DNA of 64,000 bases, from the sequence record MN850630.1, one strand, 5' to 3'. Source of the DNA: Escherichia phage naam. A program made the translations under genes and the position numbers. The notes below the pieces were generated by a model that made no database searches, was not told where the DNA came from, and worked only from the letters and a program-made list of their open reading frames with translations. Every line of letters begins with the position of its first letter. Position 1 is the stretch's first letter. Shown here in pieces: positions 2,686-37,926 of this stretch.

Positions 2686-4664
2686 TCGTAAACAGTAATG
2701 AAACTAAAGCGGTACTAACCGGTAATATGGAGGTCACCAGGGGCTCAATTTCTCTGAACAAAGAGACTTTTGGGCTAATCATTAAAGGGATTTACGAAGA
2801 TAAGGTGCTGGCAAGCTGCCGTGAACCAATCTTCAATGCCGTGGACTCCCATGTTGAGTCTGGACGGGGTGATGTACCGATCATTATTCACTCTCCTACA
2901 GACCTTGAACCATACTTCTTTGTGCAGGACGTCGGATTGGGCATGTCAGAAGAGATGGTCCGCAACACTTTCATGAACCTCGGGGAGTCAACCAAGCGCA
3001 ACAGCAACGCTCTGGTAGGTAATAAAGGTGTTGGTTCAAAGGCTCCGTTCAGCATGGTGGACACTTTCGATGTTATCAGTGTGCACAATGGTGTTGAAAG
3101 CACATATCTATTGTTCTTGGATCAGGGTATCCCAAACGTTACCAAGATCCGTGAGCGGAAGACTGAAGAGCACAACGGGGTAAAAGTTCAGTTCCATGTT
3201 AAGAAAGAGCATGTCCTGAAATATCGCACTGCTATTGCATCGTGCTTACGCTATGCGAAGTTTCCGTTCATCGTCACCGATCCTATGACCAGTAAGATGT
3301 TAGAAGGTGACAAGGTTGAGGCACAGTATCATTACGAGAAGGATGGCTGGAAAATGACCATCCTGAAAGGTTATACCAGTTCTGATGAGAGCCGTGTTGT
3401 GATGGGTCACCAACCTTACCGCTCTAAGTTTCTGGAAACATTGACAGACTACCCTGCAATCTGCGTGGAAATTCCTATTGGGGATTGCAATATTAACCCT
3501 GGGCGTGAATGGACCATAGAGGGCCATGACGACGGTGGATTCCAGGATCGCCTGGAGGCATTTGTTAAAGAAGGTATACGTCTTCGCGGGGCAGAAGTTG
3601 TTGCAGAACTGGAGACGGCAAAAACCTCCGCAGAAGCACGTGAAATGATGAAGAATAGTGGAGTGTTCGGACACATCTTCGGCAAGAACTTTATGTGGAA
3701 CCGTTGGGAAGAAACAGGGCTTGGCGACTTAGGCGATTGTGAAATTTTCGCTGGCGGCTTAAATAAAGGCCGCATAGGCTATGCTCGTTACGGAAAGTCG
3801 GAGTTCTTACGAGGTGTATACCTTGTATTTAACGACGGAGACGGCAAATATAACCGGAATAAGTGTAACTACTTAAGCGAGATCACCGGACGCAACGTTT
3901 TCTATTGCCGGAACACGGATCTGGTGAAAGAGTTTAAAGAGGCGGCACACCATCCGTTCTTTGCAGATACGGTCAAATTGTTATCGGAGCTTCCACGCCG
4001 ACCTGCGAAGAAAGGTGAAACCAAAACTCGTTACGAGCCAGGCTACTGGGTTAAGAAGCTTAGAGAGGATGGCTACTTCCATCGTGAGCGCCTCACGAAG
4101 GCAGAGTTCAAGAAGATTAAGCATTGCATCCCTTATGAGGGGGATATCCAACGGGGAAGCTGCTGGCTGGGCCAGATGAGTAACATCTACCAGCAAAATT
4201 ATGACCGTGTGCGTGCTGCACTCCAGATTCCTGAAGGTGAAGATCTGTACCTGGTATCAGAATCTCGTCTGCTTTGGACTGATCCTGATTGCCAGTATGT
4301 TACAGAGAAGAATGTGGAACATTTGTTGAAAGAGGATGCTTGGAAATTCTTACTGACTCGCGCAGCAAATGAAACTTCATATGACAGCCTATATAGACAA
4401 TTAGGGAAAATTATCCCCATGCAGGATTTTGGAAATTATCGGCCACATTTCCACAAGTGGGAAGGTAACACCGCGTGGAAGCACAGTGAGCTAAATCATC
4501 GTGCCAAAATCTTAATCGCCAACCGGGTTAAGTGCGGGAAGGCCTATATTGCAAGATTGGAAAAGAAATATCCACTTTTGAAGCATGTGGGCTTGAAATA
4601 TTGGGACACTCCTGCTATGATTGAATACCGTGAACTGATCGATACAAAGAATAACATCAAATAA
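2682..4664 (+). CDS. rIIA: rIIA-like protein with N-terminal GHKL (Hsp90/MutL-type) ATPase domain
   Basis: Bergerat-fold motifs: N-box EPIFNAVDS, G1 VQDVGLGMS, NLGESTK, G2 GNKGVGSKAPF; 660 aa with a 401-aa partner immediately downstream, the T4 rIIA/rIIB arrangement. Assignment by inference. Confidence 0.5.
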   Translation: MIVNSNETKAVLTGNMEVTRGSISLNKETFGLIIKGIYEDKVLASCREPIFNAVDSHVESGRGDVPIIIHSPTDLEPYFFVQDVGLGMSEEMVRNTFMNLGESTKRNSNALVGNKGVGSKAPFSMVDTFDVISVHNGVESTYLLFLDQGIPNVTKIRERKTEEHNGVKVQFHVKKEHVLKYRTAIASCLRYAKFPFIVTDPMTSKMLEGDKVEAQYHYEKDGWKMTILKGYTSSDESRVVMGHQPYRSKFLETLTDYPAICVEIPIGDCNINPGREWTIEGHDDGGFQDRLEAFVKEGIRLRGAEVVAELETAKTSAEAREMMKNSGVFGHIFGKNFMWNRWEETGLGDLGDCEIFAGGLNKGRIGYARYGKSEFLRGVYLVFNDGDGKYNRNKCNYLSEITGRNVFYCRNTDLVKEFKEAAHHPFFADTVKLLSELPRRPAKKGETKTRYEPGYWVKKLREDGYFHRERLTKAEFKKIKHCIPYEGDIQRGSCWLGQMSNIYQQNYDRVRAALQIPEGEDLYLVSESRLLWTDPDCQYVTEKNVEHLLKEDAWKFLLTRAANETSYDSLYRQLGKIIPMQDFGNYRPHFHKWEGNTAWKHSELNHRAKILIANRVKCGKAYIARLEKKYPLLKHVGLKYWDTPAMIEYRELIDTKNNIK

Positions 4665-7649: not shown

Positions 7650-8975
7650 ATGAGCAAAACCAAATTAGAACTTACCTGGATAGGTAAAAACGAGCGCAAA
7701 AAGTTAGAGCCGCACATTTTATTAGAAGATTCTAGCAAGTCTTACCGCAGCCAGAAAGTGACCGAAAACGATATTTTTGATAATAAACTGATTTTTGGAG
7801 ATAACTTATTAGCATTGAAGGCGCTAGAGCAAGAGTATGCAGGCAAAGTGAAGTGTGTTTACATAGACCCGCCATTCAATACCGGGAGGGCTTTTGAGCA
7901 CTACGATGATAGCCTGGAGCATTCCATTTGGCTGGGCTTAATGAGGGATAGGTTAGAAATAATTCGTAATCTTCTAAGTGATGATGGGGTAATATTCGTT
8001 CACTTAGATGATTGCGAAATGGCGTATTTAAAAGTTTTGATGGACGAGATTTTTGGTCGTGCAAATCAGTTAAATACCATATCGATGACCACAAATTCCC
8101 CTTCGGGATTTAAGGCAACAGGAGCCACAGTTTTCTCCACAGCAAACTTTTTGCTTGTATATGCAAAAGATCGCACCCAGAAACCGCTTAACAAAATCTA
8201 TATACCTAAAGGGTACGATACAGGATATAACAAATACCTATTAAACCCGGATGACCATTATAAAAATTGGACGTGGTGCAGTATTGCCGATGCGTTTGCA
8301 AAGGCCAATGGCTATAAGGATGCAAAAGAAGCCAAGAAAAAACTACCTGACACATTCGATGATGAATTAGCACAATTCGCAATTGATAATGCAGAACGTG
8401 TATTTCAATCTGTTGCAATTGGTGGTGGTGCTAAAATAAAGAGAAAAGAAACTATCGAGAAGTCAAAGAAAGATAGGGATAAGGTTTATGTACATCCAAA
8501 TGAGGATGTTGAAGGATTTTATATCGCAAATGGTAGGCAAATGGTCTTTTACTCCAATAGACTTTTGGAAATTGACGGTGAGATGCAACCTGCGGAACTA
8601 ATAACTGATGTTTGGACTGATATTAGTTGGAATGGAATAGCAAATGAAGGCGGCGTCAGTTTCAAAAATGGGAAAAAACCAGAAGCGCTTTTGAAGCGGA
8701 TTTTAGAAATGTGTACGCGAGAAGGCGATTTGGTATTGGATTCATTCGGTGGTTCGGGAACTACTGCTGCTGTAGCTCACAAGATGAAAAGACGTTGGAT
8801 CTCAATCGAGCTAGGTGATCATTGTCATACCCATATTATTCCGCGCTTGGAAAAAGTGATCGATGGCGAAGATCAAGGCGGTATTTCTAAGTCTGTAAAC
8901 TGGAAAGGTGGTGGTGGCTTCCGTTATTACAAACTTACCCCGACCTTAATTGCGAAAGATAAGTCTGATCAATAA
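7650..8975 (+). CDS. DNA amino-methyltransferase (N6-adenine or N4-cytosine, beta class)
   Basis: Motif IV DPPF (IDPPFNTG) near the N-terminus and motif I FGGSGTTAAVA near the C-terminus; AAGGAG RBS; 441 aa. Confidence 0.8.
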   Translation: MSKTKLELTWIGKNERKKLEPHILLEDSSKSYRSQKVTENDIFDNKLIFGDNLLALKALEQEYAGKVKCVYIDPPFNTGRAFEHYDDSLEHSIWLGLMRDRLEIIRNLLSDDGVIFVHLDDCEMAYLKVLMDEIFGRANQLNTISMTTNSPSGFKATGATVFSTANFLLVYAKDRTQKPLNKIYIPKGYDTGYNKYLLNPDDHYKNWTWCSIADAFAKANGYKDAKEAKKKLPDTFDDELAQFAIDNAERVFQSVAIGGGAKIKRKETIEKSKKDRDKVYVHPNEDVEGFYIANGRQMVFYSNRLLEIDGEMQPAELITDVWTDISWNGIANEGGVSFKNGKKPEALLKRILEMCTREGDLVLDSFGGSGTTAAVAHKMKRRWISIELGDHCHTHIIPRLEKVIDGEDQGGISKSVNWKGGGGFRYYKLTPTLIAKDKSDQ

Positions 8976-10235: not shown

Positions 10236-11000
10236 TTGAAATTTATCTACAAAGAACACTACCATAAAGGTGTTGTGTGGAGTCTATTTGACGGGTCTGG
10301 TGGTGCAGTCATTGACTGGGCAAAAGCTGGGTACCTGTGCCTGTGCTTTAATGCAGAAGGCGCTGATCACGGCAGTTATGCAGAGGTGATCACCGATCAT
10401 CCCAACATTCACTATGTGGACTATTGGATTGACCCGTGGTTCCCTCAGGAAACTTTTTGCATGTATCCGGCTCCAGACTTTATTCTTGCATTTCCTCCGT
10501 GCACGCATTTAGCGGTATCAGGTGCTGCACATTTTAAGAAAAAGCTGGCTAAGGACCCCATGATCCAAATTAATGCTGTAAAGGATGCTCGGGTTGCGGA
10601 AGAGCTGGGAGAGATTTACGATTGCCCGTGGCATGTAGAGAATCCTGTGGGTGTTATGTCCACACTGTGGCGCAAACCTGATTACCGTTTTCACCCTTCG
10701 GATTATGGCGGGTATTTACCGGAAGATGATGTAAACCCATGGTTTCCTGAATTTATAGCTCCACGTGATGCCTATCCAAAAATAACTTGCGGCTGGATAG
10801 GTAATGGATTTATAATCCCAGCCACAAAACCTGTCCCGCAAATAGTTGACGCGGTTAGCGGGTATTCCATGCAACACGCCAAGCTGGGTGGAAAGAGTGC
10901 AAGAACGAAGATGATTCGAAGCCTCACACCACGTGGCTGGGCAAAAGCCGTATTCCTAGCAAACGAGCCTGTAGTAAGGAGCAGAATTAATGGGAAGTAA
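10236..11000 (+). CDS. compact DNA (cytosine-5)-methyltransferase-like protein
   Basis: Motif I SLFDGSGG, motif IV AFPPCTH (PCQ-like, catalytic Cys), motif VI HVENP (ENV-like). The track start 10206 lies inside the terminator stem, so a TTG at 10236 after AGGAGA is preferred. Confidence 0.5.
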   Translation: MKFIYKEHYHKGVVWSLFDGSGGAVIDWAKAGYLCLCFNAEGADHGSYAEVITDHPNIHYVDYWIDPWFPQETFCMYPAPDFILAFPPCTHLAVSGAAHFKKKLAKDPMIQINAVKDARVAEELGEIYDCPWHVENPVGVMSTLWRKPDYRFHPSDYGGYLPEDDVNPWFPEFIAPRDAYPKITCGWIGNGFIIPATKPVPQIVDAVSGYSMQHAKLGGKSARTKMIRSLTPRGWAKAVFLANEPVVRSRINGK

Positions 11001-13068
11001 ATTTATGGCATCTGCATACAACCGTTTCGGTGAGCCAAACCCGAAAGCAACTAAGTATAAAAGTGGGGGAAGTGTGAAACGAGACTATCGTGATGAAAAA
11101 GAAGTTGAAACTGTAGAGACTGTTTTAGAAAATACTAAAATTGTCCCTGTCCCACAACAAAATATCGGTCTGATGGCTGCACAATATTTTGGTGTGCGAT
11201 CAGCATTGTCACAAGAAGACGGTGTGACAGTCACTGCAACATATTTCCCATATTACGACCGCTACGGAAATCTGTCCGGTTTCAAAAAGCGTGACTGGAC
11301 TATTCCTAAAGAACAAAGGGGCCACTTCTCCGTTGTTGGCATCGTAAAGGCCAACTCCCAGATGTTTGGTCAAAAGCTGTGTGCATCTTCCAACAACCGT
11401 AAGCAGATTAACGTTTGTGAGGGAGAAGGTGATGTTATTGCAGCATGGCAGGCTGCATATCAGATACAAGTAAAAGGGATTCTCACCAACGCTAAAGCCC
11501 CGGCAAAGGTGAAGCAGTGGGCTAAAGAGGTCCAGGACGGGATCGACGCAGTTATCAACGGTGGTGATCTGGCAGGAAAACCCTGCCTGCCTTTTGTTGG
11601 AATTAACTGTGGATGTGCAAACGCAGTAGATACTTTTGCAAACAATGAGAAGTTTATCCGTAGCTATGGAACAGTTGTGCTGGCAATGGATAACGATGCA
11701 GCTAACGAGGTAGAGAAGCAAAAACACGTCATTAAAGGTGTCGAGGCCACGCACAATATCGCAGCATTTTTGATGGCTGATAACGTTTACCACGTAGAAT
11801 ACCCTGGTGAAGTAAACGACCCTGACGGTGTAAAAGATATCCGAGACATGCTGAAGGCTAAAAAGCTGGAAGATATTGTCAACATGTTCCGGCATCCTGT
11901 TAAATATGTGCCTGATGCTGTGTCGGATTTAGAAGACTTCTCTATCGAGTCTTTGCGGAAAAAGACTTCCAACGGGGTAGATATCAGCGCAGAGTTCCCA
12001 AAACTGCAAAAAATGCTAAAAGGCTTGCACAAAGGTACACTCGTAATGCTTACAGGCCCATCAGGTGGCGGTAAAACAACCGTAGCTAAAAAACTGGAAC
12101 ACTGTATTGCAAGATACCTAATGGACCCGACATGCCCGAAGGCTGATGACTATGAAGAGGATGATCGTCTATGTATGATCCATCTTGAGGAGGACCCAGA
12201 GGAAGCAATTAACTCCTTGTATGCAAACCAGTTAGGGTTTGATGTTAAAGAGTTTGTTGAAGATCCTAGCCAGTTTTTAACTGATCAAGAACACGCAGAG
12301 ATTCATCAGTCATGGGCAAAAGCTGGAAAAATCAAAGTGTTCAAACATTTCGGGTCTATTCCGGTGGATGAGTTGATTACCAAGCTTAAGCAAATGGTTT
12401 GCCTGTACCATTGCCGTTATATTGTGCTGGATCACCTGTCCATGGTAATTTCAGGGCTTAATGTTAAGGATGAGCGAAAAGAACTGGACATGGCTATGAC
12501 CCAACTGGCTGCGTTTTGTAAGCAGTTTAATGTGTTTATCTTGGTGATCGCTCACCTCAAACGTACAGAGATTGTGCCTCCTAAGGACAAGGATGGTAAC
12601 CCGTTACCTTTCTGGTATCCTGTGCGAAAAGAGAATTTGCGAGGATCGGCGGGGCTTGAACAGTTGAGTTGGGTAGTCATAGGTGTCGAGGCCGAAGAAA
12701 TGGTGGATCGTTCTCGTGGGCGTGTCCGTCTGGTAGGTCTTAAAAACCGTCCAGCAAAAACTTTAGGTATTGCTGACACTTTAGTTATGGACCCGCACAC
12801 AGGTAAGTTCCATGATGCCAGTAACTGGTACTGGGACAAAGAAATGCAAATGTTTACAGACGGAGAAGGTGGGGAGGTTGTTTGGAGACCTCAGGCTATG
12901 TTTGAGGATCAGGAGCATGCAGTTGTAGAAACACCTATGGGCAAGGTTGTGGCTGATAAGGTTGTAACTCCTACTGTTAAGCCTGTTGACACGCAGGAAG
13001 ACCTCCAGTACGATGATCCGTCCTCTGACCATGTTCCTGGTTTTGAGGATGATGAAACACCTTTTTAA
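10990..13068 (+). CDS. DNA primase-helicase (TOPRIM primase fused to DnaB/gp4-like helicase)
   Basis: TOPRIM motifs VCEGEGDVIAAW and LAMDNDAAN; helicase Walker A LTGPSGGGKTT; 692 aa. Confidence 0.85.
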   Translation: MGSKFMASAYNRFGEPNPKATKYKSGGSVKRDYRDEKEVETVETVLENTKIVPVPQQNIGLMAAQYFGVRSALSQEDGVTVTATYFPYYDRYGNLSGFKKRDWTIPKEQRGHFSVVGIVKANSQMFGQKLCASSNNRKQINVCEGEGDVIAAWQAAYQIQVKGILTNAKAPAKVKQWAKEVQDGIDAVINGGDLAGKPCLPFVGINCGCANAVDTFANNEKFIRSYGTVVLAMDNDAANEVEKQKHVIKGVEATHNIAAFLMADNVYHVEYPGEVNDPDGVKDIRDMLKAKKLEDIVNMFRHPVKYVPDAVSDLEDFSIESLRKKTSNGVDISAEFPKLQKMLKGLHKGTLVMLTGPSGGGKTTVAKKLEHCIARYLMDPTCPKADDYEEDDRLCMIHLEEDPEEAINSLYANQLGFDVKEFVEDPSQFLTDQEHAEIHQSWAKAGKIKVFKHFGSIPVDELITKLKQMVCLYHCRYIVLDHLSMVISGLNVKDERKELDMAMTQLAAFCKQFNVFILVIAHLKRTEIVPPKDKDGNPLPFWYPVRKENLRGSAGLEQLSWVVIGVEAEEMVDRSRGRVRLVGLKNRPAKTLGIADTLVMDPHTGKFHDASNWYWDKEMQMFTDGEGGEVVWRPQAMFEDQEHAVVETPMGKVVADKVVTPTVKPVDTQEDLQYDDPSSDHVPGFEDDETPF

Positions 13069-24110: not shown

Positions 24111-24457
24111 CCTTTTATAGTAATAATCCAACCACTACCTTGAAGTTGTGGCGCAGCTTTCCAAGTACTCGATCTGTTTTTCGTTTCAAAGATTGAATTT
24201 TCTGAAAATTTTTCTCGATAAATTTCTCAGTACTCGATCTGTTTTTCGTTTTCTGAATCGGATTTTCTGGAAATCGTTCCGGCTCTCGACCTGAAATTTT
24301 TGGGGACGAAATCGATTTTTCGTTTTCAGAAATGGATTTTTAAAATTTCTATATGGGAATATTTTAGTGGATACTATTTTATAGGAAATTGTTACGGAGG
24401 GTAATTAGCGTGCTAATTAAATTTATTAAATGCGAGGAGTTCTCATTTAGAATTTTG

Positions 24458-24470
24458 AATGATAATCATT
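24458..24470. promoter_or_regulatory. Fur-box-like palindrome AATGATAATCATT
   Basis: Perfect 13-bp palindrome matching the core of the Fur consensus GATAATGATAATCATTATC (15 of 19 with flanks); a second GATAATGATAAC copy lies at 24588..24602. Confidence 0.3.
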
Positions 24471-24487
24471 CTCGTTTGCAGAATAAC

Positions 24488-24529: not shown

Positions 24530-24866
24530 TTGTTATTATAGTATCACACAGGACAAAGAAGGCAAGGATTTTTTGCATAAATTTTTAAATGATAATGATA
24601 ACCGTTCTCATTTTATGCAGCGCCCATCCCCGGTGGTTGTCTCCCCCGTCACCGGTGCCTGCCGTCCTTTCGATAGGTATATTGTGCCACCTGGCGGGGC
24701 CGCTGTCAACACCTTTTCAAAAAATTTTTCTAACCTGATGCGCTAACCGTTGCAACCTGGCGGGGCCAGCCTGGCAGGACCTAACTGACCAGGTGGGAGA
24801 GGGTGAAATCTTGCAAACCTGGTAGGCCCATGCTGTAGGGTAAACAATTGAAGAGGAGGTACAAAA

Positions 24867-34797: not shown

Positions 34798-35217
34798 ATG
34801 AACATTAAATCTAATAATCCGGCATATAGCTTTGATAACGCTTTTTGTCACGGTCCGGCGGCGAAAGGATTCGAAATCGATGGTAAACTAATTATTGTCA
34901 ATGTTGACGGGGAAGAGGTTGCAGTATATCCGGTGGCAGACGTAAAAAGCCGTTTACAATGCCGCATGGATGTTACCGCCTATCAGCTTGATCCGGTCCG
35001 CATAGTTGCCCTGGTCCTGGAAGAAGAAATTAAAGCCATGCACCATAGCAACAGATTTATTGGTGACGCGCAGGATAATATGAAAGTATGCCGCCATAAA
35101 GTTAATGAAGTGCTTAAAGAGTACGGCTATAAAGATCTTATGATCAAACGTGAGGAAAAATTCCGCTACCGTAACGACCTGGCAAATCGGATTTTTGAAA
35201 TATACGAATCATTATAA
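34798..35217 (+). CDS. hypothetical protein
   Basis: AAGAGG RBS; 139 aa; last gene of the plus-strand block. Confidence 0.6.
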   Translation: MNIKSNNPAYSFDNAFCHGPAAKGFEIDGKLIIVNVDGEEVAVYPVADVKSRLQCRMDVTAYQLDPVRIVALVLEEEIKAMHHSNRFIGDAQDNMKVCRHKVNEVLKEYGYKDLMIKREEKFRYRNDLANRIFEIYESL

Positions 35218-35235
35218 TTTTTTAACTGAATTATC

Positions 35236-35260
35236 AAGGGGCTTAGGCCCCTTTCTTTTT
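35236..35260 (+). terminator. rho-independent terminator ending the plus-strand block
   Basis: Stem aaggggc / gcccctt then TCTTTTTG. Confidence 0.65.
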
Positions 35261-35878
35261 GTCTGCTCTTCCCCCTACCATAAACGGCCCTACCTGGCAA
35301 GTGGAATAATTGACGAGCCATCAATCCTACACACTGTACAAACATACATGTAAAATAGCTATTGCATAACCTTTCATTGTGTGGTAGCGGTGCTATTTTT
35401 TACCAGTTTTCCTTCCAAAATTGCACGTAATGCCGCTATTGCACAAATTTTAACCTGATGCACATCTCCAATATCTTGTCAACAACTAAAAATCTTTATA
35501 AGTCATACACTTACACAGCATCGAAAGCGTGTTCTACGCGAAAAATCGAGTATAACTATAGCCGCCAGATCTCAGAATTCACGTACGCACGCCATTCTAT
35601 AGCCTGCAAAGTATTTATTCCAACCACAGAATAACGGAATAGTCAATACCTGCATAAAATAATTATTAGTGTAAACTGCATAACATAAATCAGCTCAGGT
35701 GTCAACATTTTTCGTAAACAGTCCGAAATTATCACGATGAGTTATCATAAACAGAGAAATCTTTAGTCGTCTAATGTTTACTGTACATTACTATACTGAC
35801 TGGAATCATTAGATGACTAAGAGAAAGATAAGAAATAATTAATAATGTAATTGTTTTACCTGTAACAATAAGGCAACT

Positions 35879-35898
35879 ATGCAAACGAATGGCATGGC
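35879..35898 (+). repeat. 20-bp direct repeat ATGCAAACGAATGGCATGGC, copy 1
   Basis: Exact second copy at 36140..36159. Confidence 0.7.
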
Positions 35899-36015
35899 GC
35901 GACGGAGTCGCGACATAATATAAAAGCAGTAACCATCACCCCCGTGATAGTTTGTCTGCAATCTATTAATCAGATCATAGTTGCCTTGTATTCAGTTAAT
36001 CATGACATGATAAGC

Positions 36016-36047
36016 AAGGCAACTATAGATCTTCTAATAGTTGCCCT
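36016..36047. repeat. palindromic site GGCAACTAT-N10-ATAGTTGCC
   Basis: Further copies of the arm at about 35870 (AAGGCAACTAT) and 35977 (ATAGTTGCCTT); operator-like or iteron-like. Confidence 0.55.
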
Positions 36048-36170
36048 GCTTTTATATTATGTCATAGAAACACCCGAAGGGGTGACCAAAGGTCACCTGG
36101 CATAGCCAGTGAAAGATTATTAACTTGCTAATAGTTATCATGCAAACGAATGGCATGGCTGATTATCGGT

Positions 36171-36257
36171 GTGTAAACAGTCAATCATGTAAATGGTTAG
36201 CATGTGAACAATCAGAAATGTAAACAATCCAGTGTGTAAACTAATAGGTGTGTAAAA
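36171..36257 (+). repeat. cluster of (G)TGTAAAC(A) repeats
   Basis: GTGTAAACAG, ATGTAAACAA, TGTGTAAAC and GTGTAAAAG within 90 bp; further GTAAACAG at about 35714, 36511 and 37221, and on the minus strand at about 36368. Confidence 0.55.
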
Positions 36258-36851
36258 GTGTCATGTTGTGTCAGTTAGGTCACATTATGTCAGACAAGTT
36301 TTTCTCCTCTTTGTCAAGTGCTGCATGAAAAATTTACAAGCTTGTATGGTAGCATTTTTGCGGCCCTGTTTACATTCAGTGTTGTATGTATAATCCTTGT
36401 TGTGTGGGCGTTTAGACGTCTGGACGGTCAGAAGTCTGCAGGTTAATATCTAATCTATCGGCTGCTAACTATATCCCACACAAATAGTAAGAAATATAAT
36501 TGTTATGTGCGTAAACAGTAACCCATGTTATCAATCCCTGTATGTATCGCCAGTGGTGCGCATAATGGGTATTATGTTAAATTGCCCGTAATGATAACAG
36601 TTCTCACAATGATAGGTATTCTCATTCACCCCCACAAGATAGGTTGCAAATGTTGTGCCACTGTGTGAACGGCCTGGCCTATTAATTTGCCTCACTGCCT
36701 TGATATTTGAGAATTATTATAAGAATGAGAAGTATTCCCATTTCGTCCGCCTGGCAGCACTCCTGTAGGTCAGGTCAAAATCGTGGTAGAACTAGACCTA
36801 TCCGGATATTTCTGGCTGACTCTTCAGGTCTGTGTGGGAAAAGCCAACCTC

Positions 36852-36866
36852 TCCGGCGGGGCAGGG
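36852..36866 (+). repeat. 15-bp GC-rich direct repeat TCC(C)GGCGGGGCAGGG, copy 1
   Basis: Second copy at 36999..37015; CTCTTCAGG recurs at about 36820, 36904 and 37351. Confidence 0.5.
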
Positions 36867-37710
36867 GGAGGTCAATTAAAAAATTTACGTGGTGTATGAA
36901 GCGCTCTTCAGGTAAGGCAGGTATTATGGGATGAAACCCGCTTCAGGCAATGATATTTGTGGGTGTGATATTTGCTGGAAGGCCAGATATGACGGGACTC
37001 CCGGCGGGGCAGGGGTAGTACAGACAGGGAAAATATGGGGATGTAGTTGGGGAAATTGATCAGACAGGTAGAGTATGGAATATGTTACAGGTATGTTAAA
37101 TATGGAGGTTGAATATCTGTAGGATTTGTGTGTAAAATCAAAGACTTAAGGGGTGTTGTGGTATTTTCTATAAATAATTCAAGTTTAATAGGCAATATTT
37201 GTCTCTATCCGCTTTGTGTGGTAAACAGATTCAGATGAGATTGGTTTACAAGTGTATACATAATATACAAATTAAAGATACAAGAAACCCCCCTCCCCCT
37301 TCGGCTACCATTCACCTTTTCCTCTGACTGGTACTTAAACACTTATTCAGACTCTTCAGGTTATCACCCATATATCATATGGCAGTGACTGGTGTCCTCC
37401 GGCCCCTCTTTCGTCACCCGTCCGCTTCGCCATGCTAATGCCATAGCTAATGGTTCGGTTGTTCACCCTGTTCACTCAGGTGTATCTCTATACCCCTTCA
37501 AACCGAAGAGAACAGAAAACCCGAATTACTCGGTAAAAGAAAAGAGAAGAACTTAATTTTATCAGGATAGGCAAGAATGTCAAGGCATGACTGCTCACTA
37601 AACAAGCAAACAGTCATGTGTGGGAGGTAAGTGATTGTGGTGGTAGGAAATTTAGTTGAAAGATGTGTTATAGGTGCTTCCAGCACTTTAGCCGGGCAGC
37701 TAATTGTGTG

Positions 37711-37926
37711 TCAGTCCAGCGGTTCATCCTCTACTTCACTGAAATCAATGTTCATGGTCTCTTCCCAACCATCGATCTCAGCACAAGAGTGGAGTTCTTT
37801 AGGGTTTACTCCCAAAGCCTCAGCAACAGAGTCTATATTTAACACCTCTGGCAGGTATGATTCATCGAATTCAAGGTAAATCAGGCCACGAGTGTTGTCA
37901 GCTCCACCAAATATCTCTATCTTCAT
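37711..37926 (-). CDS. small acidic protein (MK[IV][EK] paralog family)
   Basis: MKIEIFGG N-terminus, acidic C-terminus; most downstream gene of the minus-strand block. Confidence 0.55.
   Translation of the reverse strand: MKIEIFGGADNTRGLIYLEFDESYLPEVLNIDSVAEALGVNPKELHSCAEIDGWEETMNIDFSEVEDEPLD

Follow-up and report, generated by a model that had tools for sequence, protein, structure and literature searches.

The DNA analyzed here is a 64-kb stretch of the genome of Escherichia phage naam (record MN850630.1), which is referred to below as the window. The phage belongs to the genus Vequintavirus and is a coliphage of the rV5 type. The window contains a gene-free segment of 2.5 kb (positions 35218-37710), in which the octamer GTAAACAG is repeated. 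This segment matches 121 phage records at 90-96% identity, and searches with its DNA found matches only among Vequintavirus records. The plus-strand genes on its left stop at 35217, and the minus-strand genes on its right begin at 37926 and read leftwards to 37711. The segment is a meeting point of convergent transcription, and the cumulative GC skew is maximal there. By sequence and also by the rV5 annotation, it corresponds to the grey box that the rV5 paper marks 'non-coding' between genes 163 and 164, without assigning it a function (PMC3606486). It is called 'the box' in the following text. A preliminary description, made from the letters alone, had suggested that the octamer was a binding motif, either an iteron or an operator. 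The octamer is in fact the core of a longer repeat, YGTRAAYAGT, copies of which lie on both sides of one boundary of a sequence homologous to the terminal repeat of virion DNA. The terminal repeat has already been published. The repeat system beside it is new as far as could be found in the literature, in which we found no paper that gives the box a function or describes its repeats.

The stretch 36293-36751 shares 95-98% identity with the terminal 459 bp of phages EdH4, HdK5, Gotham and ECP2309. It is present twice in the record of each of these four phages, once at record positions 1-459; in Gotham it is annotated as a repeat_region. The EdH4 record begins at window position 36751 and finishes at window position 36293, so that the stretch is found at both ends of the record. 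The Pr121LW record opens with the same stretch and the ECP2303 record closes with it. Short terminal redundancies of 458 bp have been reported for EdH4 and HdK5 (Korf 2019, PMC6563267), and 459-bp repeats with a single specific packaging start have also been described (PMC7471380). KPP-1, which belongs to a different genus of the Vequintavirinae, has a 514-bp direct terminal repeat (DTR) and was assigned T7-type packaging by PhageTerm (PMC9862379). Other announcements call vequintaviruses circularly permuted, in conflict with the coverage-based 459-bp DTR. The coverage-based reports appear to be the better evidence, and homology to these relatives, rather than reads of the present phage, suggests that it likewise has fixed ends with a short exact DTR. 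Because the DTR maps to 36293-36751, the box is the concatemer junction. The left DTR boundary, where the DNA is cut, is between ...ATTATGTCA and GACAAGTTTTT.

Most Vequintavirus records in GenBank have been deposited with arbitrary starts. The record of phage I29 (locus L022, 3160-4339) contains a second copy of window positions 36535-37077, which spans the right DTR boundary, together with a 60-bp inverted piece. In CM1 the sequence is also found in two places. These second copies are either a real duplication of the terminus or an artefact of DTR assembly. The positions of the features in and around the junction are collected in Table 1.

Table 1. Features of the gene-free box, from left to right in window coordinates. 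DTR, direct terminal repeat.
Feature	Position	Strand	Remarks
Intrinsic terminator	35236-35253	+	Closes the plus-strand gene block at the left edge of the box; also annotated in the Murica, EdH4 and Gotham records
Isolated site TTTTCGTAAACAGTCCG in the AT-rich part	35709-35725	+	14.9 bits; 584 bp from the left DTR boundary
Two perfect 20-bp direct repeats ATGCAAACGAATGGCATGGC	35879-35898 and 36140-36159	+	Bracket the palindrome; second copy directly before the array
Large imperfect palindrome with 18-bp perfect outer arms and inner ATAGTTGCC inverted pairs	35913-36063		230 bp left of the DTR
Hypervariable segment holding the array	36068-36290		Agreement with window base 0.37-0.75; elsewhere 0.75-1.00, mostly >0.90
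Tandem array of YGTRAAYAGT units, 15-16 bp period	36168-36250	+	Matrix scores 12.0-20.5
Short repeats (T/G)GTGTCA / ATGTCA	36250-36292	+	Reach the left DTR boundary; in every relative including V18, number variable
Homolog of the 459-bp DTR of virion DNA	36293-36751		In window orientation, the left genome end, repeated at the right end
Octamer-only copy	36366-36373	-	<8 bits; invariant in 17 genomes; plus-strand reading CCTGTTTACA
Single YGTRAAYAGT site inside the DTR, TGTGCGTAAACAGTAAC	36506-36522	+	Matrix score 18.1; 213 bp from the left boundary
Octamer-only copy GGTAAACAGA with inverted GTTTAC 17 bp downstream	37221-37249	+	<8 bits; 470 bp right of the DTR

There are seven copies of GTAAACAG in the window, five of them within 35714-37228. 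As the preliminary description stated, four of the five are on the plus strand (35714, 36173, 36511 and 37221) and one is on the minus strand (36366-36373). The other two copies in the window are at 2688 (plus strand) and 59228 (minus strand). The TGTAAAC-like variants mentioned in the same description are found at 36188, 36203, 36219, 36235 and 36251, and its expected number of about 0.07 is correct for an octamer specified in advance. GTAAACAG is the top-ranked enriched octamer in 35218-37710, where five copies compare with two in the other 61.5 kb of the window; with the latter as the Poisson background, p is 8e-8. As the octamer had been chosen after looking at the sequence, the 2.5-kb region was also shuffled 2000 times with its dinucleotides preserved. 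In 37 of the 2000 shuffles, at least one octamer reached five or more copies, which puts the family-wise p at about 0.02. Taken by itself, the count thus has only moderate significance, and it is the structure of the array and the comparative data that carry the case.

The over-representation was nevertheless borne out as local clustering. In MG065655, the record of a relative with a complete genome of 140 kb, the plain octamer occurs five times, which is about the chance number, and three of these copies are in the box. Since the genome-wide number is close to chance and the strong matches are confined to the box, the signal is one of local clustering and not of compositional bias. The octamer is thus not similarly frequent in the rest of the genome, and the motif that contains it is conserved in position across relatives. 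MG065655 is one of 18 or 19 Vequintavirus records (depending on the query) that are labeled 'Campylobacter phage', and is itself marked UNVERIFIED.

A weight matrix for the extended motif was built from the units of the relatives alone and was then scanned on the window and on MG065655. The window contains nine matches of at least 12 bits, six of them in the box (five array units, 35709-35725 and 36506-36522). All three matches of at least 14 bits in MG065655 fall in the box, in the same three places as in the window, namely the array and the two single sites. Nearly all motif matches are on the plus strand throughout the 17 aligned Vequintavirus genomes used for comparison. Only three of the five octamer copies in the box (35714, 36173 and 36511) fit YGTRAAYAGT. 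The copies at 36366 (minus strand) and 37221 (plus strand) score less than 8 bits with the matrix derived from the relatives, yet they are well conserved.

The five array units that reach at least 12 bits have matrix windows starting at 36168, 36184, 36199, 36215 and 36231, and together cover 36168-36247. A sixth, degenerate unit, TGTAAAAGT, begins at 36251. The units have the same orientation, are 15-16 bp long and consist of a conserved core of 9-10 bp and a divergent spacer; they are not palindromic. In the long arrays of the relatives, the autocorrelation peaks at lags of 15/16 and 30-32. The information content is 0.7-1.9 bits per position in the core, compared to 0.06-0.47 bits in the spacer; that is, the cores are shared and the spacers are near random.

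The single site inside the DTR is fixed in its placement, being found at +213 or +214 from the left boundary in all 17 genomes, with scores of 11.9-18.1. Its core varies only at position 7 (A, T or G), a position that varies in the array units as well. The isolated site upstream scores at least 9 bits in 13 of the 17 genomes, 450-640 bp upstream of the DTR, and has weaker look-alikes nearby at 35670 (plus), 35748 (plus) and 35775 (minus). Within it TGTCAACATTTTTCGTAAAC is invariant and the 3' AGT is variable, so that the constraint at this place may belong to another element. The octamer at 37221 is lost in FV3 and reads GTAAACAA in FFH2, and there is no exact GTAAACAG at the matching place in C2.

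The array spans positions -125 to -43 relative to the left DTR boundary and, wherever it is present, lies directly upstream of that boundary. With the array ending 43 bp from the boundary and the single site at +213, the motif copies lie within a few hundred base pairs of the cut, as would be expected of a cos- or pac-type terminase site. Because the motif cluster abuts the 459-bp DTR, its likeliest role shifts from an origin iteron or an operator to a signal of the concatemer junction, acting in maturation or packaging. The preliminary description was thus right to see a genuine repeated element that is confined to the non-coding box, has an iteron-like form and is conserved in position, but the function proposed there is no longer the most likely one.

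We tentatively favor the possibility that the strand-polar YGTRAAYAGT sites are bound by a protein and serve in the maturation and packaging of concatemers. The copies would be binding sites for a single sequence-specific DNA-binding protein, the likeliest candidates for which are the small terminase subunit and an accessory maturation protein. Such a protein might assemble on both sides of the cut and position or license cleavage at the DTR boundary during concatemer processing of the T7 type. The array might then be a dosage-tolerant enhancer of the cleavage step that is not absolutely required, given that the number of its units drifts and that it is missing from one record.

The arrangement resembles the ends of the T7 genome. 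The 160-bp terminal repeat of T7 (positions 1-160) is abutted by about 13 CCTAAAG units at 171-341 with a period of 13 bp, and the CCTAAAG core is also found inside the repeat, at 17, 41 and 60, and before the right-end repeat. The T7 and T3 arrays of short repeats were reportedly named SRL and SRR by Dunn and Studier in 1983. Both T7 and the present phage have a short exact DTR (160 bp and 459 bp, respectively), an abutting array with a conserved core and variable spacers, extra copies of the core inside the repeat, a common orientation of the copies, and a gene-free region with inverted repeats and promoters. There is no sequence similarity between CCTAAAG and YGTRAAYAGT, however, and unlike T7, the present phage is a 137-kb myovirus without an RNA polymerase of its own. 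In T3 and T7 the terminal 5% of the genome determines the packaging specificity, and the concatemer junction is the place where maturation starts (PMC3276506).

The sites may also be compared with the recognition repeats of terminases. Repeats recognized by small terminase subunits are known from the R-sites of lambda cosB and from the pacL and pacR boxes of SPP1. As in these systems, several copies of a short motif are found in the present phage on both sides of the cut and within a few hundred base pairs of it. The lambda and SPP1 sites are, however, within or next to the terminase genes and are fixed in number, whereas no terminase gene is near the box and the number of array units varies from 0 to 8 or more.

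Several observations weigh against a role of the motif in maturation and packaging. A terminase gene was found neither near the box nor anywhere in the 64-kb window, and none of the 10 proteins encoded by the flanking genes reaches the curated cut-off of a Pfam family; they match only PHROGs of unknown function. T7 has the same core in both flanks, whereas the right flank of the present DTR contains unrelated repeats (CTCTTCAGGT, CCGGCGGGGCAGGGG and CAGACAGG..ATATGG) and only the octamer-only copy at 37221. We know of no established function for the T7 arrays themselves. The motif is not present in the gene-free region that lies beside a homologous 139-aa gene in phAPEC8-like phages, and the array is not present at the equivalent junction of the Mydovirus KPP-1, which has a DTR. 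The array is therefore genus-specific and not a general requirement of this type of packaging. Furthermore, it is either dispensable or highly variable. At a threshold of 9 bits, the V18 record has no array units, navn, nom, EmilHeitz and FFH2 have one or two, and rV5, Murica and slur12 have eight; the longest arrays contain extra, more degenerate units (8 or more). The V18 record keeps both single sites. It has a run of 12 T residues at the junction and is 129 kb long, so its assembly is possibly imperfect. Finally, substitution rates in orthologous arrays do not differ between the cores and the spacers (76% and 71% invariant positions, respectively; p = 0.49), and this argument for selection is thus unusable. 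V18 (locus L017) also has no second copy of the 20-bp direct repeat.

These properties of the array raise the question of whether it has any sequence-specific function. It could be a minisatellite that is prone to slippage, situated in a terminal region where recombination is active, with the other octamers being chance occurrences or parts of other elements. The array occupies the one segment of the box that is hypervariable, and its copy number changes rampantly, up to its loss in V18; substitution does not differ between core and spacer, the family-wise significance of the octamer count is modest, and two of the five copies are outside the extended motif. Units born by duplication should decay evenly, yet the cores are alike and the spacers near random. 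The copy at +213 is fixed in all 17 genomes and is embedded in unique sequence. A GTGAACAGT/GTAAACAGC pair with a 16-bp spacing persists in the otherwise unalignable locus L003, and the matches are polar with respect to the strand. A minisatellite without function is an unlikely explanation on this evidence.

Locus L003 is from a metagenomic relative. Scans of metagenomes and IMG/VR contributed no more than 11 loci, mostly from close relatives. Three further metagenomic relatives share the layout of the junction. The GTGAACAGT/GTAAACAGC pair of L003 is in tandem and is kept where the surrounding sequence can no longer be aligned. The L003 lineage region has no match among GenBank phages. In its collinear non-coding region, the equivalent of the DTR contains three perfect DnaA boxes (TGTGGATAA) at 7845-7884, 12 and 19 bp apart. 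Locus L034, a second contig of the same lineage, breaks off inside this cluster and shows two of the boxes at its end (3624-3644). No DnaA box was found in the box of the window, even with one mismatch allowed, or in that of the close relatives. Thus the statement in the preliminary description that the motif is not a DnaA box holds.

The DnaA boxes of the L003 lineage suggest an initiator acting in the region in that lineage, and the main rival to the packaging reading is that the YGTRAAYAGT sites are iterons belonging to a terminal origin of replication. A phage initiator would bind the array and the single sites, melt the AT-rich stretch and load the T7-like primase-helicase. Tandem units in one orientation with a conserved core, accompanied by outlying single sites, form a classic iteron layout, as in the plasmids P1, F and pSC101 and in the lambda origin. 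As in those origins, there is an AT-rich tract (35638-35877, GC content 0.23-0.35), which contains the left site cluster, lies 300-500 bp from the array and is therefore within 0.5 kb of it. The phage has a T7-type replisome (primase/helicase and PolA), and phiOL and phiOR, which are secondary origins of T7, are annotated next to the terminal repeats of that phage. However, with a period of 15-16 bp, unlike the 11- or approximately 22-bp phasing usual for iterons, neighboring sites face opposite sides of the helix. DnaA boxes are absent from the present phage and its close relatives, and no initiator or repressor gene was found among the 10 flanking proteins, so that a cognate initiator is not encoded nearby. 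Forks starting from a point of convergent transcription at the GC-skew maximum would meet transcription head-on. In addition, the array is lost in V18, and several viable phages have a single unit left. A terminal origin is possible, but we do not consider it probable.

A further possibility is that a transcription factor, either of the phage or of the host, uses the sites as operators or activator sites in the control of promoters within the terminal region. The site at 36506-36522 is 25-40 bp upstream of a weak predicted plus-strand promoter (36547-36575). The minus-strand octamer overlaps a conserved TTTACA...TATAAT pair, in which CCTGTTTACA is 14 bp upstream of TATAAT and only the spacer, with a 4-nt patch between the two hexamers, is variable. 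The claim that the octamer is not a sigma70 element may therefore not hold for this copy. The 14-bp spacer is non-canonical for a promoter, however, and no predicted promoter overlaps the array. The units are non-palindromic direct repeats, there are no strong matches at promoters elsewhere in the 140 kb of the relative, and operators do not usually vary in copy number between 0 and 8 or more. The box does contain a further operator-like motif, AATGATA-N4-TTCTCA, which resembles the Fur box. Altogether, control of transcription by the YGTRAAYAGT sites is very doubtful.

AATGATA-N4-TTCTCA occurs four times in the window compared to 0.13 expected. Two copies are intergenic at about 24.5 kb (24458-24474 and 24594-24610) and two are inside the DTR (36590-36606 and 36608-36624). 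The match to the Escherichia coli Fur box is 15-16 of 19 positions at 24455 and 24591. Similar sites are found in the non-coding region of phAPEC8 (locus L006, 6483-6500 and 6662-6679), and the KPP-1 junction (locus L031, 2941-3164) contains four or five copies of the near-perfect palindrome ATGATAA-N4-TTATCAT. The sites of this type are conserved across genera, and Fur or a phage regulator might bind to them.

The space between the array and the left DTR boundary is occupied by short repeats that contain GTGTC. This pentamer is found two to seven times on the plus strand of the box and never on its minus strand in all 17 genomes, with its copies clustering in the final 100 bp ahead of the DTR. 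T7-type primases recognize GTGTC, and a T7-like primase/helicase is among the proteins of the phage. A more elaborate form of the packaging and maturation reading can be drawn from this arrangement, which we regard as speculative. YGTRAAYAGT could be the cis-acting specificity signal for end formation, with a Vequintavirus-specific binder, either the small terminase subunit or a new accessory factor, coating the polar array and the +213 site and thus setting the place of the cut. The GTGTC cluster could anchor the final primer of the lagging strand at the DTR boundary, which would leave the repeat single-stranded for annealing of concatemers. If this is true, the box would contain the first defined packaging or maturation signal in this phage group, with priming at the replication end and recognition for packaging side by side.

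Phages related to rV5 are widely used in the typing of E. coli O157, in biocontrol and in therapy collections. The 2.5-kb box has been without explanation since 2013, and many GenBank records still call the genomes circularly permuted. The conserved polar repeats against the DTR provide concrete, mutable candidates for a packaging or maturation signal or for a terminal origin, and the copy-number polymorphism of the array is a natural allelic series for effects of dosage. Knowledge of these elements could be of use in phage engineering (rebooting of genomes, and vectors competent for transduction or packaging), in the correct orientation of database records and in understanding concatemer processing in large myoviruses with DTRs.

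The large palindrome to the left of the array is predicted to form a stable structure. Folded as single-stranded DNA, it has an energy of -45.5 kcal/mol compared to -18.0 kcal/mol for shuffled sequences (z = -10). A hairpin intermediate has been proposed in the processing of the T7 junction, and the palindrome recalls such a hairpin. It is invariant in 16 of the 17 genomes, and a check for covariation is thus uninformative. In the remaining genome, FV3 (locus L011), it is deleted, and therefore it is not essential. The loss of this 150-bp palindrome fits recombination between the two 20-bp direct repeats that bracket it.

Apart from the hypervariable segment, which holds the array, the box is 90-100% conserved in the 17 genomes; the values of agreement with the window base in Table 1 are means over 25-nt bins. 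Its most conserved part is 37268-37620, where most of the bins are at 98-100% and those of 37443-37492 are at 93-96%. An island of this part can still be aligned in L003. A near-consensus sigma70 promoter (TTGACA-16-TAAAAT with TG) is located on the minus strand at 37583-37556 and is followed by a small hairpin and a T-run at 37533-37521. A structured RNA in the near-invariant 37270-37550 is unsupported by folding (z = -1.25 on the minus strand and 0.02 on the plus strand) and has no Rfam match. The search of the whole window for known RNA families resulted in no match at gathering scores and in two sub-threshold chance matches in the box. No tRNA or tmRNA was found.

Between the DTR and this conserved part, the right flank (36752-37120) has repeat families of its own. 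These are GACTCTTCAGGT (36818, 36902 and 37350), CCGGCGGGGCAGGGG (36853 and 37001), which contains the KOPS-like GGGCAGGG, and CAGACAGG..ATATGG (37019, 37059 and 37086). The CTCTTCAGG element of the right-flank repeats recurs in L003 and KPP-1. An 87-aa neighbor of the box is labeled 'DNA translocase FtsK' in some records, and GGGCAGGG occurs twice in the box, but Pfam detects no FtsK-gamma domain in this protein and the idea of a KOPS/FtsK system was dropped.

Both arms flanking the box are long series of small genes of unknown function. Farther out, the T7-like primase/helicase (10990-13068) and the PolA-type polymerase are encoded on one side, and genes of nucleotide metabolism on the other. 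The gene bordering the box on the left (34798-35217) codes for a protein of 139 aa that is about 89% identical in phAPEC8-like phages of the Stephanstirmvirinae (loci L006 and L008), where the homologous gene is followed by a gene-free stretch of 1.5-1.7 kb with a sequence unrelated to the box. The gene is missing from FV3, slur12 and JeffSchatz. This distribution points to the exchange of a near-terminus gene between subfamilies.

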